A stretch of DNA of 64,000 bases, taken from assembly GCA_028865035.1 (NCBI GenBank), contig JAGWLB010000001.1, positions 99,668-163,667 on the forward strand. Reading direction: 5' to 3'. Positions 2,452-53,380 of the stretch are shown in pieces (within the stretch, counting starts at the first letter, position 1; every line of letters begins with the position of its first letter). The stretch is from Patescibacteria group bacterium. GTDB lineage: Bacteria; Patescibacteriota; Minisyncoccia; Phycocordibacterales; UBA9973. Under the pieces are notes generated by a model that made no database searches, had not been told where the DNA came from, and saw only the letters and a program-made list of their open reading frames with translations. The translations under genes were made by a program, and so were the position numbers.

Positions 2452-2524
2452 GTGCCCCTGGTAGGAATCGAACCTACATCGACGGCTTAGAAGTCCGCAG
2501 TTCTATCCATTGAACTACAAGGGC
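2452..2524 (-). tRNA. tRNA-Arg (anticodon TCT)
   Basis: Reverse complement folds as a cloverleaf: acceptor GCCCTTG/CAGGGGC, D stem GTTC/GAAC, anticodon loop CTTCTAA, T arm GTAGG-TTCGATT-CCTAC. One mismatch at the base of the anticodon stem. Confidence 0.7.
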
Positions 2525-2552
2525 ATATTGTCTACTTGTTCTGTGGTGACGG

Positions 2553-2625
2553 TGCGCGATGCAAGACTCGAACTTGCGACCTTCCCGGTGTAAACGGGTT
2601 GCTCTACCAACTGAGCTAATCGCGC
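2553..2625 (-). tRNA. tRNA-Val (anticodon TAC)
   Basis: Reverse complement GCGCGATTAGCTCAGTTGGTAGAGCAACCCGTTTACACCGGGAAGGTCGCAAGTTCGAGTCTTGCATCGCGCA: acceptor GCGCGAT/ATCGCGC, anticodon loop TTTACAC, T loop TTCGAGT. Confidence 0.85.
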
Positions 2626-2750
2626 ATATTATTTTATACTTAAGCTTAACTCACCATAACTTACCTGGGTTTCATACCTACCAAGACAGCTAACAGCGCA
2701 TAAGTCGAATAATATCATATTTTCGGTATATTTCAATCCCGTGCTAATAT

Positions 2751-3542
2751 ATGCATATGAAAGTCCCTATACTTTTCGAAGATAAGAATATATTAGTGTT
2801 GAATAAACCAGCTGGGCTTGCTGTGCATGCAGATGCTAAAAGTACTGACGAAGAAACAATTTCTGATTTTATAATTGCACACGATAAATCAATTGCTAAA
2901 GTCGGTGAACCAATGATGATAGAGTACAAAGGGGAAAAAGTAAAAATAATACGCCCAGGTATTGTTCATCGTCTAGACAAAGAAACATCAGGAGTATTAC
3001 TAGTAGCAAAGAACCAAAAAACTTTTGAATTGTTAAAAGAGCAATTTCAAAATCATACAATTAAAAAAGTTTACAGAGCTTTTGTTTATGGACCAGTTAC
3101 TGACCCAAAAGCTTCACTTGCCACTGGTAAAAGAGGAATCATAAACGTACCCATTGGTCGTAGTCCAAAAGATATTCGTATGTGGACTGCAGGACGCGGA
3201 GCAAGGCCACCTTTGAGGGAAGCAGTGACAGAATATATTATTCTTAATAAATTCAGCGATATAGTGAATAGTAAATCAACAGTAGAACATCAGTTTACAT
3301 ACATAGAGGCATATCCAAAAACTGGTAGAACTCATCAGATTCGTGTACATATGCGTTATATAAATCACCCCGTTGTTTCAGATCCACTTTATAGAGGGTC
3401 AAAAGATATGGCTCTAGGTATGAAACGACTTGCTCTTCACGCCTTTTCAATAACCTTTCGTTTACCAAATGGAGATACTAAAACAGTTGAAGCTCCATTA
3501 CCTCCCGATTTTAAAAAAGTAATAAAGACATATATACAATAA
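2751..3542 (+). CDS. RluA-family pseudouridine synthase
   Basis: Motifs ILVLNKPAGLAVH and GIVHRLDKETSGVLLVAK (catalytic Asp motif HRLD). Confidence 0.85.
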   Translation: MHMKVPILFEDKNILVLNKPAGLAVHADAKSTDEETISDFIIAHDKSIAKVGEPMMIEYKGEKVKIIRPGIVHRLDKETSGVLLVAKNQKTFELLKEQFQNHTIKKVYRAFVYGPVTDPKASLATGKRGIINVPIGRSPKDIRMWTAGRGARPPLREAVTEYIILNKFSDIVNSKSTVEHQFTYIEAYPKTGRTHQIRVHMRYINHPVVSDPLYRGSKDMALGMKRLALHAFSITFRLPNGDTKTVEAPLPPDFKKVIKTYIQ

Positions 3543-3588
3543 AACCTAATTCTTGCGTAAAATACCCATATGTGATAAAGTAGGCCCT

Positions 3589-4011
3589 ATGACAGCAGCA
3601 GAATTAACAAAGAAAACATTCACTTCAGTTGACCAAGACAGCCGTAAAAATCTTAATTTTAAGGCTGGTGATACTGTTCGTGTCTGGAATAAAATTACAG
3701 AAAAAGGCAAGATTCGTCTTCAGGCATTTGAAGGACTAGTTCTTTCACGAAAACACGGCACTGAGAGTGGAGCAACTTTTACCATACGTAAAGTATCTTC
3801 CGGTGTAGGTGTAGAACGTATTTTCCCACTTTACTCTCCAAATGTAGATAAAATAGAAATTCTCAGGCAATCTAAAACTCGCCGAAGTAAGCTATATTAT
3901 ATCCGTACTAAGGCAGTCAAAGAAGTTAAGAAGCGTCTAAAAAGTGTTACTCTTTCAAAAGAAGAATCAGAAGAAGCATCTTCACAGCCATCAGCTACAA
4001 CCGAAGAATAA
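3589..4011 (+). CDS. rplS: 50S ribosomal protein L19, with an acidic C-terminal tail
   Basis: FKAGDTVRV...KGKIRLQAFEGLVLSRKHG...FTIRKVSSGVGVERIFPLYSPNVDKIEI matches L19. ATG at 3589 chosen over the upstream TTG at 3553. Confidence 0.9.
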   Translation: MTAAELTKKTFTSVDQDSRKNLNFKAGDTVRVWNKITEKGKIRLQAFEGLVLSRKHGTESGATFTIRKVSSGVGVERIFPLYSPNVDKIEILRQSKTRRSKLYYIRTKAVKEVKKRLKSVTLSKEESEEASSQPSATTEE

Positions 4012-4015
4012 AAAA

Positions 4016-4038
4016 TCTCGCAACAGCGAGTTTTTTTA
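4016..4038 (+). terminator. Rho-independent terminator after rplS
   Basis: Stem CTCGC / GCGAG, loop AACA, followed by T7. Confidence 0.7.
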
Positions 4039-4085
4039 TTGAAAAAATACTATAAATCATATATACTCCAAGCGTTGTTACTTAT

Positions 4086-4169
4086 GCCCAGGTGTTGAAA
4101 TTGGTAGACATTTATCCTTGAGGTGGATAAGCCAGCAATGGCGTGGAGGTTCGAGTCCTCTCCTGGGCA
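4086..4169 (+). tRNA. tRNA-Leu (anticodon GAG), long variable arm
   Basis: Acceptor GCCCAGG/CCTGGGC, anticodon stem TATCC/GGATA with loop TTGAGGT, variable hairpin GCCA-GCAA-TGGC, T loop TTCGAGT. Confidence 0.8.
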
Positions 4170-4251
4170 CAAATATAAAAATATGAAAGATATACTGAAC
4201 CTATAGGTATCGAGGTTCTTATATTGTCATCATTTCCTGTATAATATCCAT

Positions 4252-4824
4252 ATGTCATTATTTTTATTGTATGCACTTAATTGGTTTCTTGTAATTATTC
4301 TTTTTATTGTCCTAGTCTTACTTGTTATTTGGATGGTTACTGGCTATCGCGCCAAGGTTCCATTTGTCCCAGTCCCGAATTCTATTTTGAAAGATATATA
4401 TCAGTTAATGAAAGTTCGAGAAGATAGTGTTGTGTATGATCTTGGGTGTGGAGATGGAAGAGTTCTCTTTTATATATCACATTTTGTACCTAAAGCTCGA
4501 TACATAGGTATCGAGAATGTTACATTTCCTCTGATCCTAGCCCACCTAAGAGCTTGGTGGCATCGCAAGATAACAGGAACACAAATAGAAATTCTCAATC
4601 AAGATTTTTTTAAACAAGATTTATCAAATGCAACTCATATTTTTACTTATCTTTATCCTAATGTTATGGATGATTTACTTCCGAAATTGGAAAAAGAACT
4701 TAAACCAGGTACTAAACTTGTATCCGTAACTTTTAAATTTACTTTGAAACAACCTTCACAAGAATTTGATCTAAAAAGATCCAAATACAAGCTCGCACGC
4801 AAAATATATATCTATGAATTTTAA
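4252..4824 (+). CDS. Membrane-anchored class I SAM-dependent methyltransferase
   Basis: N-terminal TM helix; motif I VYDLGCGDGRVL. Confidence 0.6.
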   Translation: MSLFLLYALNWFLVIILFIVLVLLVIWMVTGYRAKVPFVPVPNSILKDIYQLMKVREDSVVYDLGCGDGRVLFYISHFVPKARYIGIENVTFPLILAHLRAWWHRKITGTQIEILNQDFFKQDLSNATHIFTYLYPNVMDDLLPKLEKELKPGTKLVSVTFKFTLKQPSQEFDLKRSKYKLARKIYIYEF

Positions 4825-4850
4825 ACCCAGATGATATAATAAAGTGATAT

Positions 4851-7388
4851 ATGATCACTGAGGATTTGATTGTCTACATACAGACACAGCTTAGAAAAAA
4901 TACTCCTAAAGATATAATTATATCTCGTCTTCTATCTGCTGGGTGGCATAGAGATGATGTAGATGAAGCGTTCGCAAAAATTAACCCACCCACTCCAAGC
5001 GTTGTTCAACAACCTACACAACCAAAATCTTTTTATGTATCTACGTTATCTTCCATAGATAGCTTTTCTAAAAATCCAGATCCATATCGTGAGAAAATCT
5101 CACCGAATGAACCCGAGCCTAAAATTGAAGAAATAAAAGATACAATCAAGGTTGAACCAAAAATTGAATTAAAACCAGAACCAGTATCAGAACCAAAAAC
5201 AGTAACTACAGCTCAACCGGTTGAAAAACAAGAACCAGTTATTTCTAATACTAAACCTAATCCCGAGACAGATAGAGTAAAACCTATCTTTGCAAAAAGC
5301 TTCAGTGAAGCTAATCCAAAAATCCAAGTTGAGCCTATAAAAAATAATACTGAATCTAAAACACAAACAACATCACAAGTACATCCAGAAGTTGAGCCGC
5401 TTATTCCGCCACTATCTAAAAAAGCAGCAGAACCCATCATTACTACGGCATCTATCTTAAATCAAAAAAGTGATGAGACAAAAATAGAGATACGCAATGA
5501 AGAAATAGCACCAGTGTTGCCTAAAAAGGAAGAGATAGAAAATAAAATATGGACACCCATTAAAGTTCCTCCCAAGGTAGAATCTATTATTCCTCCTGAG
5601 CCAAAGAAAGTTTTTGAACCGGTTACTGTTAATACACCCATATCGCCTAATGTCGAACCAGTTATTTATGTAATTCCAGAAAATATAGAAAGAAAAGTTA
5701 CACAACCTATACAACCAAGTGTAATAAATAAAAAAGCGAATATTGAAGTCCGTAACGAAGAGCTTATCCCACCAATTAAACCCAAGACAAGTATCTCCGA
5801 TATCAAAAAGAATATTAAGCCAGTAACTCCTACTTCAGCGGTATTATCTGGACTTAAGATGACTTCCAGTACGAAGGTGCCAGAAAAGCCCACTGTACCT
5901 ACTATTGATAGCTTGGCAAGTAGTGCGATGATATATTCATATAAAAAAACATTACAACAAGCAATTAAAAATAATGAGAAAAAATTTGTTTATAAAAAAC
6001 ATAAATTATTTAAATGGTTACCAGTAATATTAATAATTATTGTTGCTCTAACTACAGCCGTTTTCTTGGTTAGTGGAAATTACATAAAGTTACCTTCATT
6101 TATAAAGAAAGATCCAAAAACTCTGCTTATTAATGCTCCTGTATCTCTTGGTAAATTAAAATATTATAAAATTGAAACAAACGCCACTATTTCTCTACCA
6201 CCGCTTGCAAATATTACTTCTGGCTTGGTTAGTGGACAAGCTGTGGTATCGAACGATAAAGATTATCTATCTCTTTCAGCTAAAGGTGTTGTTAACCACG
6301 AGAATGAATCTATGCCAGTATATGATTACAACGCCATCTTCAGTAGCTCATTGTTTAAGGATAATATTGTAGCAAACCTTAAATATAATAGTCTTATTTC
6401 TCTTGTTACAACTCCTGATTTAAGCCAGTTGCTAGGATCTAATGCACCAAAAGTGACTAATGTCTTAGTACCCAAAGGTCAGTTAGATGCTTTCATTCCT
6501 TTACTTCCTGGCAAGCTTCAAGATATTGCTTCTAAAGTTAATATTGAACAATTATTCTCTATAGGAGTGCCATCGTATGCAAACGATGAGACAAATTCTA
6601 TCTTCAGAGATTTTGTAAATAATAGTACTGTTATTGAAAAAAGCCCAGAAGTCGTGCGCGGAGTATTGTCGTATCATTATGAATTAAATGCAAACAAAAC
6701 AGATACAAATAAATTCATTACACAGTTCATAGATACTTTTACTTTTGGATTATCAGATGCTGAAAAAAATACTTTGAACGAAAGACTGGGCGCTATTTCT
6801 CTCGATTCATTTGAAGTCTGGGTAGGTGAACAAGATAACAGAATACATCAATATGAATTCAAACTCACAACACCATTATCTAGATTGATAGGATTAGACG
6901 ATAAAGGTATTGCCGGTAATCAAGTAAGCTTGGATTTTAAAACTACTTACTATGATTTTGATGTTAAGAATACTATTTCTATACCTACAGATGCAGTGAG
7001 TGTTTCCGATTTTATGAAAAGTATTAGTGATATGAAAATAAAAGATAAAATTTCTTCATTTAAAGTCCTGGCAACAAATTTCCATAATGCTACAGGTAAC
7101 TACGGTAGTCGTAGTAATCCAAATGGTAGCTGTACTAACCCTAATCCTGGCTCTATGTTCTCTCCAGTTGGTAATCCTAGTGGAGCAAGTAATGCTGTAA
7201 GTTATATTTCAAGTTTGATGAATGATATTTTAAACACGACAAATGGTGCTCTGTATTGTTACTCTACTCCGAGCGCTTGGGCCCTTGCTGCACCACTTGC
7301 TGTTGATCCTGCCACTCTATACTGTTCTGATAACACTGGTAAAGATATTATCCTTAATAAGCCACCAACCGGTGCGTCTTGTAAATAA
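4851..7388 (+). CDS. Large bitopic membrane protein: cytoplasmic N-domain, ~330-aa Pro/Glu/Lys-rich degenerate-repeat linker, one TM helix, and a Cys-containing C-terminal extracytoplasmic domain
   Basis: Repeated IE(V/I)RNEE(L/I)xP and PEPK-like units; TM helix LPVILIIIVALTTAVFLV; no recognised catalytic motif. Confidence 0.4.
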   Translation: MITEDLIVYIQTQLRKNTPKDIIISRLLSAGWHRDDVDEAFAKINPPTPSVVQQPTQPKSFYVSTLSSIDSFSKNPDPYREKISPNEPEPKIEEIKDTIKVEPKIELKPEPVSEPKTVTTAQPVEKQEPVISNTKPNPETDRVKPIFAKSFSEANPKIQVEPIKNNTESKTQTTSQVHPEVEPLIPPLSKKAAEPIITTASILNQKSDETKIEIRNEEIAPVLPKKEEIENKIWTPIKVPPKVESIIPPEPKKVFEPVTVNTPISPNVEPVIYVIPENIERKVTQPIQPSVINKKANIEVRNEELIPPIKPKTSISDIKKNIKPVTPTSAVLSGLKMTSSTKVPEKPTVPTIDSLASSAMIYSYKKTLQQAIKNNEKKFVYKKHKLFKWLPVILIIIVALTTAVFLVSGNYIKLPSFIKKDPKTLLINAPVSLGKLKYYKIETNATISLPPLANITSGLVSGQAVVSNDKDYLSLSAKGVVNHENESMPVYDYNAIFSSSLFKDNIVANLKYNSLISLVTTPDLSQLLGSNAPKVTNVLVPKGQLDAFIPLLPGKLQDIASKVNIEQLFSIGVPSYANDETNSIFRDFVNNSTVIEKSPEVVRGVLSYHYELNANKTDTNKFITQFIDTFTFGLSDAEKNTLNERLGAISLDSFEVWVGEQDNRIHQYEFKLTTPLSRLIGLDDKGIAGNQVSLDFKTTYYDFDVKNTISIPTDAVSVSDFMKSISDMKIKDKISSFKVLATNFHNATGNYGSRSNPNGSCTNPNPGSMFSPVGNPSGASNAVSYISSLMNDILNTTNGALYCYSTPSAWALAAPLAVDPATLYCSDNTGKDIILNKPPTGASCK

Positions 7389-7391
7389 AAT

Positions 7392-7814
7392 ATGAAAAAT
7401 ATAATCATTATAGAATCAATAAGTATTCTTGGCTTAATAGGTTTTTTGATTTCTTCGTATATATATAAAAAAAAGAAATCAAAGAAAAAGTTGATATGTC
7501 CTAGACGCTCAAACTGCGATACCGTTATACACTCCGATCACTCAAAGATTATGGGTATCCCTGTTGAAGTCCTAGGAATGACTTATTATTTTATAATCAG
7601 TTGTTCATATAGTCTTTTGTTGTCTCTTAATATTTGGTCTTTCTCTGTGGCTGTAGTACTTCTCGGAGCTACCTTATCCGCTACCTTGTTCTCGATATAT
7701 CTCGTTTCTATTCAAGCATTTGTTGTTAAACATTGGTGCATCTGGTGTTTATCTTCAGCGATTATTTCTATCTCTATAGCTTCATTAGCTTATATTCTTA
7801 CACTCGCATTTTAA
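7392..7814 (+). CDS. Vitamin K epoxide reductase (VKOR) family disulfide-generating membrane protein
   Basis: Loop cysteine pair CPRRSNC followed by SDHSKIMGIPVEVLGMTYY, and the TM active-site CIWC (CxxC) motif. Confidence 0.65.
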   Translation: MKNIIIIESISILGLIGFLISSYIYKKKKSKKKLICPRRSNCDTVIHSDHSKIMGIPVEVLGMTYYFIISCSYSLLLSLNIWSFSVAVVLLGATLSATLFSIYLVSIQAFVVKHWCIWCLSSAIISISIASLAYILTLAF

Positions 7815-7896
7815 ATAACACAGTCTATAACTAGATTTATAGGCTGTTTTCTGGTATAACAGGATAGTCGCTCCAGCCACTTGTGGAGCATATTAT

Positions 7897-7969
7897 GGTG
7901 CCTATAGTGTAATGGTTAGCACTAGAGTTTGTGGAACTCTCAGTCTGGGTTCAAATCCCAGTAGGCACC
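7897..7969 (+). tRNA. tRNA-His (anticodon GTG) with encoded G-1
   Basis: G-1 then acceptor GTGCCTA/TAGGCAC, discriminator C, anticodon stem AGAGT/ACTCT with loop TTGTGGA, T arm CTGGG-TTCAAAT-CCCAG. Confidence 0.85.
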
Positions 7970-7976
7970 CAAGCAA

Positions 7977-8003
7977 CAAATTCCCCTTCGGGGGATTTTT
8001 GTT
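7977..8003 (+). terminator. Rho-independent terminator after tRNA-His
   Basis: AAATTCCCC-TTCG-GGGGATTT hairpin followed by T5. Confidence 0.75.
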
Positions 8004-8004
8004 T

Positions 8005-8138
8005 GGGTGCTTAAACAAGCAAACTGCTTTGCTTATGTCTGGGATTTGAAAACCTTTTCCGTTTGAGCATCGCGAATGGAAAAGGTATACAGATCCTGTA
8101 AGGATCAAAAAGCGTACTCGCGGTCCCGGTAGGCACCC
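8005..8138 (+). repeat. tRNA-His-like terminal duplication: a GGGTGCTTA 5' segment and a TCCCGGTAGGCACCC 3' segment flank ~115 nt of structured, hairpin-rich non-coding sequence
   Basis: 8124-8138 matches the tRNA-His 3' end 7956-7970 at 14 of 15 positions. 8005-8013 matches the tRNA 5' end GGTGCCTA with one mismatch. The two ends can pair (GGGTGCT/GGCACCC). Confidence 0.5.
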
Positions 8139-8197
8139 GTACATTCTGAGTCTTATTTTACAAAGGTTATTTTTGATACCCATAATGGGATTCAAAC

Positions 8198-8206
8198 TGG
8201 TATAAT
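8198..8206 (+). promoter_or_regulatory. Extended -10 promoter (TGGTATAAT) 6 nt upstream of the ATG at 8213, implying a leaderless or near-leaderless transcript
   Basis: TGnTATAAT match at 8198-8206; no room for an SD sequence. Confidence 0.5.
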
Positions 8207-8212
8207 AAAACT

Positions 8213-9973
8213 ATGAACTCTGAAACCAGAAACTGTCAAAACTGCAAGCAAGACTTCACTATTGAGCCAGATGATTTCTCTTTCTATGAGAAAATCAAAG
8301 TTCCTCCACCTACATTTTGCCCAGAGTGTAGATTTGAAAGAAGAGCTGCTTTTCGTAATGAAAATAAACTTTTCCTTGTTAAAGATGCTTTTACCAAAAA
8401 AGATATTTTTTCATTGTATCCACCAGAGGCAAATCGCAAGGTTGTAACCCAAGAAGAATGGCATAGCGACACATGGAGTGCTTTTGATTATGGAAAAGAT
8501 ATTGATTGGTCTCGACCATTTATGACTCAGGTTTTAGAACTTGAAAAAGAAGTCCCAATTTACAATCTTAATGTGCAAAGAATGTTTAATAGTCCATATT
8601 CAGGCAATGCCACAGGCTTAAAAAATTGTTATTTACTCTTCGGATCAAATGACTCAGAGAATTGTTTATATGGTAATGAGGTAGATGCTTCTAGGGATTG
8701 TGTGGATAATTCTCATATTAATAAGTCTGAGCGTTGTTATGATTGTTTTTGGATTCAGAACTGTTATCAATGTTATGGAAGTATAATGTCTGTCGATTGT
8801 AGTAATGTGTGGTTTTCTCGCGATTGCCTTAGCTGTCACGATTGTATTGGCTGTACTAATTTACGTAAATCATCATATTGTATTTTTAATAAACAATATA
8901 CTAAGGAAGAATATACAAAATTAATAAGTGACATGAACCTCAATAGTATTCTTGACTATAAGAATATGTATGAGAAATCTATAAAATTTTGGAAAACTCA
9001 GATAAATAAATACCATCAAGGTTTGAGGAATTTAGATTCAACTGGGTCGTATGTAACGGATTCAAAAAATGTTAAATATGGATATGCAATACGTGGTAGT
9101 GAAAATTTAAAATATTGCCAGCTGATGTTAGTTCCAGACAATAAAGACTGTTATGACTGTTGTATATGGGGTCAACATACTGAATTATCATACGAGACTA
9201 GTATATGCGGTGAAAATTCATATAATCTTAAATTCTGTTTTAATAGTTGGCCTTCATGTCGTGATAGTGAGTACTGTATGAATAATTTTAGCTCTGGAAA
9301 TTGTTTTGGGTGTGTTGGTTTAAAAAGTGCACAATATTGTATTTTGAATAAGCAGTATTCTAAAGAAGAATATACTAGTTTAGTTTCAAAAATAAAAAAA
9401 CATATGGATGAAGTTCCATATATTGATTCACAAGGTTTAATCTATAAATATGGTGAATTTTTCCCAATAGAATTTTCTCCGTTTGGCTATAATAATTCTT
9501 TAGCAATTCAACAATTTTCTATGAATAAAGAAGAAGCTATAAAACATGGATATCCATGGATAGAAAAAGAAAAAAATGAATATGATATATCATTAAAGTA
9601 TTCAGATTTACCACAATCTATTTCTGAAGTAGATAATAGTATTTTGAAAGAAATTATTGAATGTGAAAAATGCCATAAGGCTTATCGTATTATGCCAGAT
9701 GAACTGACTTTTTTAAAAAAAGAAAATATACCTCTTCCGACTAAGTGTGTTGAGTGCCGTTATCAGGAGCGAATATTTCACAGGTTGTCTTTTAGGCTTT
9801 ACAATAGTAGCTGCATGTGTAATGGGGTAAATGATAAAACTAATCAGTACTCCAATACAAGAATGCATACTCATGGAAGTAATGCTTGTCAAGAAATATT
9901 TATGACTGGTTATAACCCTAAGGGTGACGATATAGTTTACTGTGAAAAATGTTATCAACAAGAAGTAGTATAA
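8213..9973 (+). CDS. Cysteine-rich (about 45 Cys) internally duplicated protein with N- and C-terminal CxxC...CxxC zinc-ribbon-like modules; unknown function
   Basis: N-term CQNCKQDF..FCPECRFERR and C-term CEKCHKAY..CVECRYQER are paralogous modules. Two ~170-aa internal repeats each end in CI(F/L)NKQY(T/S)KEEYT. Cys spacing of 9-12 residues is solenoid-like. Confidence 0.5.
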   Translation: MNSETRNCQNCKQDFTIEPDDFSFYEKIKVPPPTFCPECRFERRAAFRNENKLFLVKDAFTKKDIFSLYPPEANRKVVTQEEWHSDTWSAFDYGKDIDWSRPFMTQVLELEKEVPIYNLNVQRMFNSPYSGNATGLKNCYLLFGSNDSENCLYGNEVDASRDCVDNSHINKSERCYDCFWIQNCYQCYGSIMSVDCSNVWFSRDCLSCHDCIGCTNLRKSSYCIFNKQYTKEEYTKLISDMNLNSILDYKNMYEKSIKFWKTQINKYHQGLRNLDSTGSYVTDSKNVKYGYAIRGSENLKYCQLMLVPDNKDCYDCCIWGQHTELSYETSICGENSYNLKFCFNSWPSCRDSEYCMNNFSSGNCFGCVGLKSAQYCILNKQYSKEEYTSLVSKIKKHMDEVPYIDSQGLIYKYGEFFPIEFSPFGYNNSLAIQQFSMNKEEAIKHGYPWIEKEKNEYDISLKYSDLPQSISEVDNSILKEIIECEKCHKAYRIMPDELTFLKKENIPLPTKCVECRYQERIFHRLSFRLYNSSCMCNGVNDKTNQYSNTRMHTHGSNACQEIFMTGYNPKGDDIVYCEKCYQQEVV

Positions 9974-9979
9974 TAAATT

Positions 9980-10468
9980 ATGGAAAAAATCATGACTTCA
10001 GATTTAGTTTTAGAGATTTACAGTTCTTTAGATAATATTGGAATACCTATTTGGATTGATGGTGGTTGGGCAAAGGATGCTCTTATAGGTAGACAAACAA
10101 GAGAACATAGGGATTTAGATATTGCTGTTGAAAGGAAAAACTTAGATAAATTAATTAACTATTTTGAATCTCTAAAATACAAAGAAATTCCTAGATCAGA
10201 AGAAAATAAATGGGATATTGTTTTAGGTGATGACGATAGTGAAATAGATATTCATGCTTTTGAATTTGATGATAATAGCAAGATTATAGACAAACCATAT
10301 TGGGATGCATATTCAGAGGATGCACTCAATGGTATAGGTCATATTAATGGTATTAGAGTACGGTGTGTAAATATTAATCATCTTTTGAAAACTCTCGACG
10401 AGAAGAAACGTGAATTACGTGAAAAAGATAGGCATGATTTGTCTTTACTGCTTAATTTAAAAAAGTGA
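9980..10468 (+). CDS. Small nucleotidyltransferase of the ANT(2'')/AadB-like family
   Basis: IPIWIDGGWAKDALIGRQTREHRDLDI closely parallels the ANT(2'')-Ia motif LPLWIGGGWAIDARLGRVTRKHDDIDL; ~160 aa, like AadB. Confidence 0.6.
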   Translation: MEKIMTSDLVLEIYSSLDNIGIPIWIDGGWAKDALIGRQTREHRDLDIAVERKNLDKLINYFESLKYKEIPRSEENKWDIVLGDDDSEIDIHAFEFDDNSKIIDKPYWDAYSEDALNGIGHINGIRVRCVNINHLLKTLDEKKRELREKDRHDLSLLLNLKK

Positions 10469-53218: not shown

Positions 53219-53238
53219 TACAATTTATATACGCTCAC

Positions 53239-53270
53239 AAAACTCACCCAAAGGGGTGAGTTTTGTTTTG
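53239..53270 (+). terminator. Rho-independent terminator directly after rpsG; a second weak hairpin plus T7 sits at about 53290-53307
   Basis: CTCACCC-AAAG-GGGTGAG followed by TTTTGTTTT. Confidence 0.7.
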
Positions 53271-53380
53271 GGACCCAAAAGATGTACTGCTCCTGTAAGG
53301 AGTTTTTTTGTTGACAAAATATCAAAAAAGAGTAGTTTAAAAGTAAATAAACCTAATTTCAAAAATTTAAAATTATAGCA

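Follow-up and report, generated by a model that had tools for sequence, protein, structure and literature searches.

We found that positions 7971-8138 of the window (the whole 64-kb stretch of Patescibacteria DNA analysed here), comprising a leader hairpin, L1, and an element at 8005-8138, are with high confidence an intact copy of an undescribed family of Patescibacteria (Paceibacteria-type) cassettes. We have the same high confidence in the plan of the family, in which a cassette sits directly 3' of tRNA base C74, on the same strand, and is made up of the L1 hairpin, a 5' arm, the core common to the family, and a 3' arm. Genomes of Patescibacteria (CPR) are tiny and, to our knowledge, hardly any of their non-coding RNAs or mobile elements have been characterised; a literature search returned no description of such an element. 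The specificity segments of this folded module are literal copies of the target tRNA, rewritten for at least four tRNAs. That the arms copy the tail of the partner tRNA suggests insertion or regulation guided by base pairing.

The locus and the predicted fold of the cassette

The tRNA-His(GTG) gene spans 7898-7970, with G-1 at 7897 (ARAGORN), and is matched by the Rfam tRNA model RF00005 at 63.8 bits. A terminator scan placed the L1 hairpin proper at 7978-7998, followed by a T-run, in agreement with the intact tRNA and terminator described in the initial annotation. The promoter of this transcription unit (Table 1) is the likely source of any read-through RNA across the cassette; its motif also precedes tRNA-His at L085, L091, L097, L099, and L109 (L numbers are our handles for related loci), and its 9-mer CTGGTATAA is found again upstream of the next gene. 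The final segment of the tRNA, X(proximal), comprises the T-loop, the T-stem 3' strand, the acceptor 3' strand, C73, and C74, and is copied into the cassette arms. Together with L1 and 8005-8013 it forms a predicted 24-bp hairpin. A G+C-rich hairpin followed by a U-run, as in an intrinsic terminator, is found in L1 only, while 8005-8138 has no such ending.

Table 1. Features of the tRNA-His locus and its cassette (window positions)
Feature	Position	Strand	Basis or remark
Extended -10 promoter element cTGGTATAAc of the tRNA-His transcription unit	7851..7860	+	Sequence
tRNA-His(GUG), encoded G-1, last base C74	7897..7970	+	ARAGORN, Rfam RF00005
X(proximal), final 21 nt of tRNA-His	7950..7970	+	Reverse complement of cassette 5' arm fits at 20/21
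L1, palindromic terminator-like hairpin and U-tract	7971..8004	+	Terminator scan, inverted repeat, fold
P1 5' strand (X'a), GGGTGCTTA	8005..8013	+	Reverse complement of tRNA positions 66-74, one G.U
P2 hairpin, loop CUGC	8015..8036	+	MFE; branches exactly at the acceptor/T-stem junction
X'b, P3 5' strand CUGGGAUU and T-loop complement	8039..8050	+	Perfect reverse complement of 7950-7961
P4, long hairpin of variable length, conserved CCUU/AAGG base	8052..8086	+	Fold, covariation
Junction (GG)UAUAC(A), then P5 GAUCCU-GUA-AGGAUC (GUA triloop)	8087..8106	+	Motif census, covariation
A5 linker and P6 (GCG-UACU-CGC)	8107..8121	+	Fold; P6 optional, in 'long-form' copies
P3 3' strand and P1 3' strand	8122..8138	+	Cassette terminates at C74

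The element itself is approximately 134-135 nt long. The RNA fold of 8005-8139 has a predicted energy of -56.7 kcal/mol (z = -6.68 relative to shuffles), compared with -43.3 kcal/mol (z = -3.84) for the opposite strand. We conclude with high confidence that a single strand of the cassette, in the sense of the tRNA, folds into a tRNA-shaped structure of six helices. The hairpins named in the initial annotation are real and the stretch enclosing them is structured, although it measures 110 nt rather than the ~115 nt given there.

Both ends of the element derive from the tRNA tail. X(distal), at 8124-8138, is a direct copy of tRNA positions 60-74 with 14 of 15 bases identical, as had been noted earlier for the tRNA 3' 15-mer. 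The sequence TCCCRGTAGGCACCC occurs in the 64 kb only twice, at 7956-7970 and 8124-8138, where 0.04 occurrences are expected; lying just 153 nt apart, the two repeats do not serve as the limits of an island, a role once proposed for them. The beginning of the element at 8005 had been taken for a copy of the tRNA 5' end. Its tRNA-like match stands, but the better match is to the reverse complement of the tail, C73 and C74 included; GGGTGCYTA at 8005-8013, counted with its reverse complement at both tRNA-type 3' ends, gives three matches against 0.40 expected. Further in, CTGGGATTTGAA (8039-8050) is a 12-nt inverted match to the T-loop and T-stem 3' strand without a mismatch.

The element was not identified as any known RNA. 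Within the window, ARAGORN and RF00005 reported only 7898-7970, with nothing at 8005-8138 even at E <= 10, and the tRNA model was likewise silent on the cassettes in L084, L091, L092, and L097. A tRNA gene or pseudogene was rejected, as no cloverleaf is detectable, P2 is the one arm found where a tRNA has its D and anticodon arms, and the T-loop is replaced by a multi-helix junction. In both gathering and E-value modes, Rfam 15 covariance models matched tRNAs alone, with no relevant match at E <= 10 in the window region or at E <= 1 or 0.1 in four homologous loci, and no tmRNA was found in the window or the scanned loci (ARAGORN, Rfam). We therefore discarded tmRNA, SRP RNA, RNase P RNA, 6S RNA, riboswitches, and known ribozymes, which had no model match and the wrong size and topology. 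A riboswitch or 5' leader of the downstream gene was also discarded because downstream genes change between loci.

Several RNAs are processed together with tRNAs, including phage T4 stable RNAs C/D, mascRNA, the tRNA-like domain of tmRNA, and the bacterial Y RNA YrlA. The cassette resembles them in its coaxial acceptor/T-type helix and its location in a tRNA transcription unit, and it would probably be processed by tRNA enzymes; it differs in lacking a T-loop or free discriminator and in having arms that literally copy, and change with, the neighbouring tRNA. The Rfam mascRNA, tmRNA, and tRNA models did not match it. The earlier suggestion of a tRNA-like non-coding RNA thus holds for topology and fails for recognition by tRNA models. 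A trans-acting small RNA of this kind, made in one transcript with the tRNA, excised by RNase P at 8005 and trimmed after 8138, might mimic the cognate tRNA through its acceptor/T-stem minihelix and so engage a synthetase, toxin, or other tRNA-binding factor. We consider this quite unlikely. P1 stacks on P3 without a linker and the single arm P2 emerges at the acceptor/T junction, in keeping with a tRNA, but the stack is 15-17 bp rather than 12 and has no elbow, and since P1 pairs N73 and C74 no free discriminator or CCA end is left. The strongly conserved fold and the position within tRNA transcription units, once between two tRNAs of an operon, would suit such an RNA, and phage T4 tRNA clusters do include stable RNAs with tRNA-like ends. 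However, the arms copy Arg and Val tRNAs as well, despite the identity of ArgRS and ValRS substrates not residing mainly in the acceptor stem, and many distal arms are decayed while the 5' arm is still perfect to the flanking tRNA (L097-Arg, L109-Arg).

Conservation of the fold among related copies

Through a metagenome scan and synteny sampling, we identified over 20 related copies, which lie on 15 Patescibacteria contigs. The metagenome scan returned 11 homologues with identical loops and different stems; its pattern fixed the outer arms, so this His-linked sample is biased. In alignment A2, 96.6% of cells are paired, compared with 30-44% in slid controls, and 18 of 39 pairs have changed on both sides. 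Alignment A6, which was fitted to the structure model and whose pairing figures are therefore somewhat inflated, has 94.1% of cells paired, where slid controls reach about 40%, and both partners have changed in 32 of its 39 pairs, among them 7 of 9 in P1 and 6 of 8 in P3; in P2 all nine pairs have changed on both sides, with 98.8% of cells paired. The observed covariation values were reached by none of 500 shuffles. Compensatory changes and conserved unpaired nucleotides, the generic marks of a conserved structured single strand, are thus both present. When element and host phylogenies were compared, element identity (75-87%) showed no clear correlation with the identity of the host methyltransferase (54-80%).

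The inner core, consisting of P4, the GUAC junction, the P5 hairpin with its GUA triloop, and the optional P6, is common to all tRNA contexts. Its unpaired nucleotides (the GUAC junction, the GUA triloop, and the A-run) are invariant across four tRNA contexts and among hosts whose proteins are 55-60% identical. The junction and P5 are the best-conserved section of the family, and the pair closing the P5 triloop is U:A, C:G, or U.G among copies. Pairing of the P2 loop with the GUAC junction in a pseudoknot was rejected by inspection, as variants of the loop and junction are uncorrelated, and a CsrA- or HutP-type protein site in P5 was rejected because the GGA and UAG motifs are not kept across copies.

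Watson-Crick pairs make up nearly all of the stems (403 of 440 cells), and in many copies both strands fold about equally well. Read on the plus strand, G.U outnumber A.C pairs 22 to 4. An RNA from the minus strand, which folds slightly less well, was rejected on these grounds, but only weakly because the stems are mostly Watson-Crick.

A conserved fold with compensatory changes leads us to reject a disrupted second tRNA-His gene and a decayed integration scar, two options of the initial annotation, whose proposed comparison with related genomes thereby turned against the scar. We regard either origin, including a scar left by a larger island, as extremely improbable. In their favour, the 3' 15-mer directly repeats the tRNA 3' end, and in L081, L082, and L109 genes do lie between tRNA-His and a module made of a tRNA remnant plus a cassette. 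However, an architecture of ~125-150 nt has been kept on all 15 contigs, P2, P4, and P5 have no homology to tRNA, and no integrase was found among the flanking ORFs scanned; genuine decayed tRNA-His remnants adjoin some cassettes and look quite unlike them.

Partner tRNAs, pairing, and occupied sites

Cassettes partner with tRNA-His, tRNA-Arg(UCU), tRNA-Val(UAC), and tRNA-Ser(UGA), and all 16 tRNA-adjacent cassettes lie directly downstream, in the sense orientation. The 5' arm is the reverse complement of partner tRNA positions 54-74, interrupted by P2, and the 3' arm is the direct copy. In 11 of 15 copies there is at most one mismatch between the 5' arm and the reverse-complemented final 21 nt of the tRNA, lineage-specific T-stem and T-loop variants included; X'b covaries with these variants across genomes, and the nine X'a positions of Arg and Ser cassettes complement their own tRNAs. 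The reverse complement of the tRNA 3' 9-mer was found downstream only at the 13 cassette-bearing tRNAs and at none of 40 other tRNAs. Since P1 pairs N73 and C74, complementarity reaches the boundary itself. The tRNA-Val/tRNA-Arg spacer of L109 is filled by a cassette that reaches right up to the 5' end of tRNA-Arg.

The inverted copy, X', can pair with either of two partners. Whole-transcript MFE structures pair it with the tRNA 3' end in 12 of 12 loci folded. Hairpins built from the tRNA end, L1, and X'a span 21-28 bp and are almost purely Watson-Crick in most loci, where hairpins containing L1 have 0-1 G.U pairs. Stem perfection declines from L1 to tRNA:X' and then to X':distal X.

This gradient, the near absence of non-Watson-Crick pairs, and the nearly equal folding of both strands in many copies would all suit a functionless by-product of palindrome dynamics. 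In this view, template switching (quasi-palindrome correction) would enlarge the terminator hairpins behind tRNA genes and copy the tRNA end, first inverted and then direct, and the mutational process itself would keep stems perfect. We judge this very unlikely, as it explains neither the shared core, with invariant unpaired nucleotides across four tRNA contexts, nor the constant position of P2, nor why the inverted copy is missing from all 40 tRNAs that lack the core.

The same pairing alternatives raise a regulatory reading, in which the cassette is a cis-acting RNA switch on the upstream tRNA, acting in read-through transcripts. X' paired with the 3' half of the tRNA would leave the tRNA misfolded, while X' paired with the distal copy, as P1/P3, would free it; the P4-P5-P6 junction would be the protein or small-ligand sensor that chooses between them, and the module would have spread over tRNA genes with re-tuned arms, like T-boxes among aminoacyl-tRNA synthetase genes. 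We rate a switch, the main rival to the reading favoured below, as unlikely. In its favour, every locus has three segments whose pairings exclude one another, and the complement extends into the T-loop; this part stays unpaired when the cassette folds on its own, which fits selection for pairing with the tRNA. Invariant junction nucleotides amid covarying helices are an aptamer-like pattern, the orientation is always sense, G.U pairs exceed A.C, and terminators follow the cassette in L084, L088, L092, L109-E3, and L114. The position of L1 tells against it: a canonical terminator precedes the cassette almost everywhere, so that most transcripts would lack the cassette. A hairpin of the L1 type is kept at every cassette, even behind dead tRNA remnants, with varying sequence. 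Furthermore, the distribution is patchy, decay or truncation affects many copies, the cassette is absent from close syntenic relatives, intact copies lie 1.3-1.4 kb from a functional tRNA-His (L081b, L109-E3), and there is no obvious ground for a signal common to His, Arg(UCU), Val(UAC), and Ser(UGA).

Comparison of orthologous sites points to insertion. Such sites occur filled or empty, and tRNA-His is followed by an empty site in the syntenic relatives L099, L103, L105, and L109. In all intact copies the far end directly repeats the tRNA 3' segment, and in two comparisons this distal copy is followed by the native terminator and by DNA homologous to that found after the empty tRNA. Reading from the tRNA end, one passes L1, the inverted copy, the core, and the direct copy before reaching the native downstream DNA. 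L089, L091, and L097 have older, truncated copies stacked further downstream, and core subtypes form a mosaic over tRNA types and genomes. All strong matches to the core model adjoin a tRNA or tRNA remnant, and a core-only covariance model returned no strong copy in ~0.5 Mb of related DNA with few tRNA genes. A dispersed repeat of the MITE or REPIN type was rejected, as strong copies are confined to tRNA sites and the terminal repeats vary with the tRNA.

Relation to known mobile systems and neighbouring genes

We tentatively favour, at somewhat below an even chance, the view that the cassette is a small, non-autonomous insertion element whose recognition of tRNA 3' ends depends on base pairing, a mechanism we infer from these arrangements. 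The cassette would land precisely after the 3' end of the tRNA gene. X' would act as an internal guide, pairing with the flanking tRNA end to mark the left boundary or with the cassette's right end to mark the right one; having both options, one pairing would define both boundaries. The folded single strand would rebuild the duplex form of the target, and an enzyme would be supplied in trans. L1 would be a substitute terminator for the tRNA, so that the host gene remains functional, and the cassette, being inside the tRNA transcription unit, would be transcribed at least sometimes.

Three known kinds of element share parts of this arrangement. Integrases inserting into tRNA genes (P4-type integrases, genomic islands) leave attL/attR sites that duplicate the segment from the T-loop to the 3' end. 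As in such islands, a direct repeat of the T-loop/T-stem-to-3'-end segment bounds the cassette DNA, the tRNA is intact, the distal repeat gives way to native DNA, some orthologous sites are occupied and others empty, and remnants lie in stacks. Unlike them, the insert is ~150-190 nt with neither integrase nor cargo, an extra inverted copy of the target is present, and the fold rather than the sequence is conserved. The att-type reading of the initial annotation therefore survives in its direct repeat, with native DNA behind it and filled and empty sites, and does not extend to an integrase or an island; the far-end repeat expected of att sites is present, while a recombinase gene or variable cargo between the repeats is not, and the fold of the insert is conserved.

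CTX-phage attP(+), used by XerCD, and integron attC are recombination sites that work as folded single strands. The cassette is like them in that a stem rebuilds the duplex target, structure is kept over sequence, one strand is specific, and the integrated order is S - loop - S' (inverted) - body - S, hairpin included. It is unlike them in its target, a tRNA 3' end instead of dif or attI, in its body of ~100 nt in place of a phage genome or gene cassette, and in having no recognisable recombinase gene nearby. IS200/IS605 elements and their miniature derivatives (PATEs) use a Y1 (HUH) TnpA, subterminal hairpins, and a guide and target of 4-5 nt each. Here the likenesses would be insertion directly 3' of a fixed target, in one orientation and with no conventional target duplication, a left cleavage site in the flank and a right one at the element end, both read by pairing beside hairpins, and a precise loss that would give back the empty site. 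In contrast, guide and target of the cassette pair over 9-21 nt, the sequence of the left hairpin L1 is not conserved, and no TnpA/TnpB gene lies nearby.

A further parallel comes from Thermoproteales archaea, where related introns in different tRNA genes have been attributed to 'tRNA intron transposition'. These too are related short inserts in several tRNA species, with the T-loop region included, and the whole-locus MFE at the cassette is formally a tRNA with a ~200-nt T-loop insert. The cassette hosts differ in being bacterial, we identified no bulge-helix-bulge motif, and the insert comes after a complete tRNA and a terminator, so splicing is not needed.

Several observations weigh against insertion. 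His-linked copies stand in conserved synteny and could reflect old vertical inheritance, and empty sites could arise by deletion between the direct repeats. We saw neither a free or circular form of the cassette nor filled and empty alleles within one population. The rewriting of the arms on a move to a new tRNA is unexplained by any demonstrated mechanism, and covariation with conserved unpaired nucleotides equally fits an RNA useful to the host. No transposase or integrase was found in or beside any copy (Pfam scan of ~30 flanking ORFs), no recombinase gene appears in existing annotations around L097, L109, and L114, and no TnpA gene lies within the 10-14 kb windows read around copies. A core-motif scan of IMG/VR viral contigs gave two chance matches, unconfirmed by the covariance model, and blastn with the cassette found no copy in the phage and plasmid collections scanned.

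It is possible, though rather unlikely, that the cassettes are base-pairing-programmed elements of a new class, with a conserved folded core bearing exchangeable arms that recognise the final ~21 nt of a tRNA gene, either for long-guide single-strand insertion or as a 3' RNA switch. In the insertion form, the guide would be far longer than that of IS200/IS605 and the element mobilised in trans, maybe through a dumbbell-shaped circular intermediate of ~180 nt; in the switch form, an RNA located 3' would gate the folding of the tRNA transcribed just upstream. Either form, if true, would have no described precedent in bacteria. A mobile cassette would choose its insertion site by 9-21 nt of pairing with no adjacent enzyme gene, and would bear on the evolution of guided recombination systems and on programmable insertion, while a switch would be the first regulator to control, from the 3' side, how a tRNA folds. 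A practical outcome is that the cassette accounts for assembly breaks at tRNA-His and that the covariance model enables annotation of loci now left blank or misread as integration scars.

The genes downstream had been viewed as cargo-like and the Cys-rich ORF among them (586 aa) as an orphan. Our data support neither view. This ORF has at least 7,991 homologues, and among 79 loci of the gene on scanned genome contigs tRNA-His was present at one and the element at none, so gene and element are unlinked. The ORF at 9980-10468 is an ANT(2'')-type nucleotidyltransferase (PF10706, E = 3e-22), as previously called. For the upstream VKOR protein, an exact-sequence look-up returned no record. Elsewhere in the window, an isolated core fragment lies after rpsG, which we count among the signs of insertion. 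Downstream of the element, TGGTATAAT occurs at 8198-8206, 6 nt upstream of the ATG at 8213.

A conserved, structured cassette beside tRNA genes

The initial annotation of this window, which comes from a Patescibacteria genome, described a tRNA-His followed by a tRNA-His-like terminal duplication with a structured spacer, and our data confirm that description. The 15-mer TCCCRGTAGGCACCC occurs in the window only at 7956-7970 and 8124-8138 (expected 0.04), and the RNA fold of 8005-8139 reaches -56.7 kcal/mol (z = -6.7), compared to -43.3 kcal/mol on the opposite strand. Furthermore, 8005-8013 (GGGTGCTTA) is complementary to both of these 3' ends, and 8039-8050 is the perfect 12-nt reverse complement of 7950-7961 (T-loop and T-stem 3' strand), a match absent from the initial annotation. 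Neither ARAGORN nor Rfam gave a match for 8005-8138, even at E <= 10.

A metagenome scan keyed solely to the two outer arms returned 13 loci. We found that 11 matches have the whole internal architecture in common while their stem sequences differ; the remaining matches, on three loci (one sequence on two contigs and one other), are chance-like. The shared fold opens with a 9-bp P1, followed by hairpin P2 (9 bp, CUGC loop) and helix P3 (6-8 bp). Past the junction UUUGAARA comes hairpin P4, variable in length, with a CCUU/AAGG base; past the junction (G)GURUAC come hairpin P5 with its GUA triloop, an A-run and an optional P6, after which the strand returns through P3 and P1. A trans-acting tRNA mimic is unlikely given that P1 pairs N73 and C74 and the T-loop is missing.

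In a MAFFT alignment 96.6% of cells were paired, versus 30-44% with slid partners, and both-side changes occurred in 18 pairs; none of 500 shuffles reached the observed values. When 19 copies were aligned to a covariance model, 94.1% of cells were paired and 32 of 39 pairs showed both-side changes (P1, 7 of 9; P3, 6 of 8), figures favoured by fitting the alignment to the model itself. The window copy is an intact member of this family (139.6 bits, fifth of the 19). The cassette is a conserved, structured unit flanking tRNA genes. The initial interpretation was partly right: its decayed-scar reading, which it held to be refuted by a conserved fold with compensatory changes, falls on its own terms, and a scar or broken tRNA is now extremely improbable. 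No Rfam model matched the family and literature searches found no description of it; the family is undescribed.

Cassette arms copy the adjacent tRNA's 3' end

Copies at His, Arg and Ser tRNAs share one plan. The element opens with 9 nt that are complementary, in inverted order, to tRNA positions 66-74; the 12 nt 3' of P2 stand in the same relation to the T-stem 3' strand and T-loop; and the closing 15-21 nt repeat the tRNA 3' end directly, up to C74. The 5' arm has 0-1 mismatch to the last 21 nt of the tRNA in 11 of 15 copies and tracks lineage variants of the T-stem (CUGGG, CAGGG, CCGGG) and T-loop (UUCAAAU, UUCGAAU); the T-loop complement does so although the element's own fold leaves it unpaired. 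Only the 13 core-bearing tRNAs, and 0 of 40 others, have their 3' 9-mer in reverse complement within 110 nt downstream. P2, P4, the GUAC junction, P5 and P6 are common to the tRNA contexts, with two core subtypes in a mosaic distribution, and the arm segments are essentially all that sets the Ser-linked copy apart from the His-linked ones. Neutral palindrome growth would leave this shared core inexplicable, and we consider it very unlikely.

We also asked where copies reside (L-numbers are metagenome or relative loci). The element lies directly 3' of tRNA-His, on the same strand, in 8 of 11 metagenome matches, and follows a decayed tRNA-His remnant in the other three (L081b, L082, L088); because the scan that yielded this His-linked set fixed the outer arms, the set's frequencies and the invariance of P1 within it carry little meaning. 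No such constraint lay behind the Arg, Val and Ser copies or copy E3 of L109. Relatives were also sampled by way of a conserved upstream methyltransferase, a route that does not depend on the element. Among these, L097 has copies 3' of tRNA-His, tRNA-Arg(UCU) and (decayed) tRNA-Val(UAC); L109 has copies 3' of tRNA-Arg and between tRNA-Val and tRNA-Arg, with two more at 1.4 and 2.4 kb 3' of tRNA-His; a copy lies 3' of tRNA-Ser(UGA) in L114; and the Arg-linked copy in L103 is decayed. No cassette is present in L099, L105, L107, L108 and L113 of this sample. All 16 tRNA-adjacent copies are downstream of the tRNA on its strand. A search of approximately 0.5 Mb of related DNA with few tRNA genes by a core-only model turned up no strong copy, nor was a copy found in IMG/VR (core-motif scan) or in phage and plasmid collections (blastn).

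The tRNA and element are parted by L1, a palindromic terminator-like hairpin whose sequence varies by locus. At most loci the tRNA 3' end, L1 and first arm form a 21-28 bp, almost purely Watson-Crick hairpin. The minimum free energy structure of the whole tRNA-L1-element transcript was a swapped fold at 12 of 12 loci, pairing the tRNA 3' 21 nt with the inverted copy and the tRNA 5' strand with the distal copy; it lies 12-23 kcal/mol below the summed separate parts in a calculation that ignores tRNA tertiary structure and folding order. Evidence for strand is modest: there are 22 G.U versus 4 A.C, and in 11 of 12 copies the plus strand folds at least as well as its complement. One L109 copy fills the tRNA-Val/tRNA-Arg spacer, abuts the tRNA-Arg 5' end and is probably within an operon transcript. 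A three-segment RNA switch that controls how the upstream tRNA folds would account for the T-loop complement and the conserved junction; we regard it as rather improbable since the terminator ahead of the cassette, the patchy distribution and the intact copies far from the tRNA are left unaccounted for.

Insertion signature and remnants

Orthologous sites are either filled or empty: syntenic relatives have tRNA-His sites with a terminator directly 3' of the tRNA. In L109, 20 nt are identical between the tRNA-His 3' end and the end of E3, and the next ~55 nt, terminator included, are homologous; DNA 3' of the Arg-linked copy in L097 is likewise homologous to DNA directly 3' of tRNA-Arg in L044. 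These homologies define the unit as L1, inverted copy, core and direct copy. The unit sits right after C74, with native downstream DNA following the direct copy. Intact copies in L089, L091 and L097 have truncated ones 3' of them. No enzyme gene is adjacent to the cassette, and neither integrase nor transposase was found among ~30 flanking ORFs and the annotated neighbourhoods.

We rate the cassette as kin to a tRNA-gene-targeted insertion or a tRNA-like structured element. Of the readings considered we favour, tentatively, that it may be a small insertion cassette, non-autonomous, in which an internal arm pairs with the end of the flanking tRNA as well as with the cassette's right end. The arm would recognize both by base pairing, the folded single strand would recreate a duplex target, and L1 would supply a terminator, so that the tRNA might stay functional. 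Base-pairing recognition of both ends would follow the logic of IS200/IS605, and the refolded target that of CTX attP(+) and integron attC, likenesses that do not establish membership. Such hairpin integration yields the integrated order S-L-S'-body-S, which is the order of the cassette. It is less likely than not, yet a real possibility, that base-pair-programmed arms make the cassette something categorically new.

Upstream of copies that adjoin no live tRNA lie the decayed remains of a -10 box, leader and tRNA-His (..AAUAAU-AGUGUUACAAGG..GUCGAAG..UAUAGGACCC; ~75% conserved across three genomes), with ordinary genes between this module and the real tRNA-His. In the window, rpsG (S7, ending ...KAFAHFAW*) is followed by a terminator hairpin, CACAAAACUCACCC-AAAG-GGGUGAGUUUUG, and then by GGGACCCAAAAGAUGUAC-UGCUCC-UGUAA-GGAG-U7 (also written GAUGUAC-UGCUCC-UGUAA-GGAG-U7), an isolated copy of the cassette's junction and P5 that lies away from tRNA genes. 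Also conserved and rich in hairpins is a second region, without an Rfam match, directly 3' of tRNA-Arg(UCU) in L044 and, in L097, 3' of the Arg-linked cassette; the tip of its first hairpin, CAGGCAAACUGCUUUGCCUG, resembles P2.

Neighbouring genes

Cassette-bearing tRNAs are mostly members of a conserved tRNA-Arg(UCU)-to-tRNA-His cluster. L113, without a cassette, carries a diversity-generating retroelement in this cluster. Three assemblies made independently for a close relative (L093, whose contig ends at 9139; L094; L095) stop at or inside tRNA-His, consistent with assembly trouble from a long palindrome or repeated copies.

Features of the window and of related loci (window coordinates unless a locus is named)
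Feature	Position	Strand	Remarks
Conserved neighbourhood	2452-7970; also L085, L089, L097, L099, L103, L107-L109, L113, L114		tRNA-Arg(UCU)/tRNA-Val(UAC), RluA-like gene, L19, tRNA-Leu(GAG), (MsrA), 190-aa SAM methyltransferase, low-complexity protein (640-930 aa), (VKOR), tRNA-His
tRNA-His(GUG)	7898-7970; G-1 at 7897		ARAGORN, Rfam
Terminator-like hairpin and T-run	7978-7998		3' of tRNA-His
586-aa Cys-rich protein	8213-9973	+	very large, highly conserved Paceibacteria family
162-aa ORF	9980-10468	+	aminoglycoside-2''-adenylyltransferase family, PF10706, E = 3e-22
Isolated cassette fragment (junction + P5)	~53,270-53,310, within 53237-53310	+	24.5 bits, core-only model
Cassettes with decayed tRNA-His remnant	L081 8770-8867; L082 8236-8345; L109 11290-11404	L082: -
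Second hairpin-rich region	L044 898-1025; L097 849-1000
Diversity-generating retroelement	L113 3349-4761		bAvd and reverse transcriptase, between RluA-like gene and L19

The Cys-rich protein, identical to KGI58_00600 ('Patescibacteria group bacterium') at NCBI, had been taken for an orphan; instead, at least 7,991 homologues share 40-69% identity with it. Its relatives are from Paceibacteria/Nomurabacteria-type MAGs, its family has many invariant Cys residues and two paralogues in some genomes, and it contains no Pfam domain. Linkage of this gene to the cassette was found in 0 of 79 loci. Given TGGTATAAT at 8198-8206 and the ATG at 8213, its mRNA is probably leaderless. The extended -10 motif CTGGTATAA precedes both tRNA-His (7851-7859) and this gene (8197-8205), and also stands ahead of tRNA-His in several relatives. 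The initial call of an ANT(2'')-type nucleotidyltransferase is borne out for the 162-aa ORF, and MsrB- and MsrA-like ORFs come next after it.
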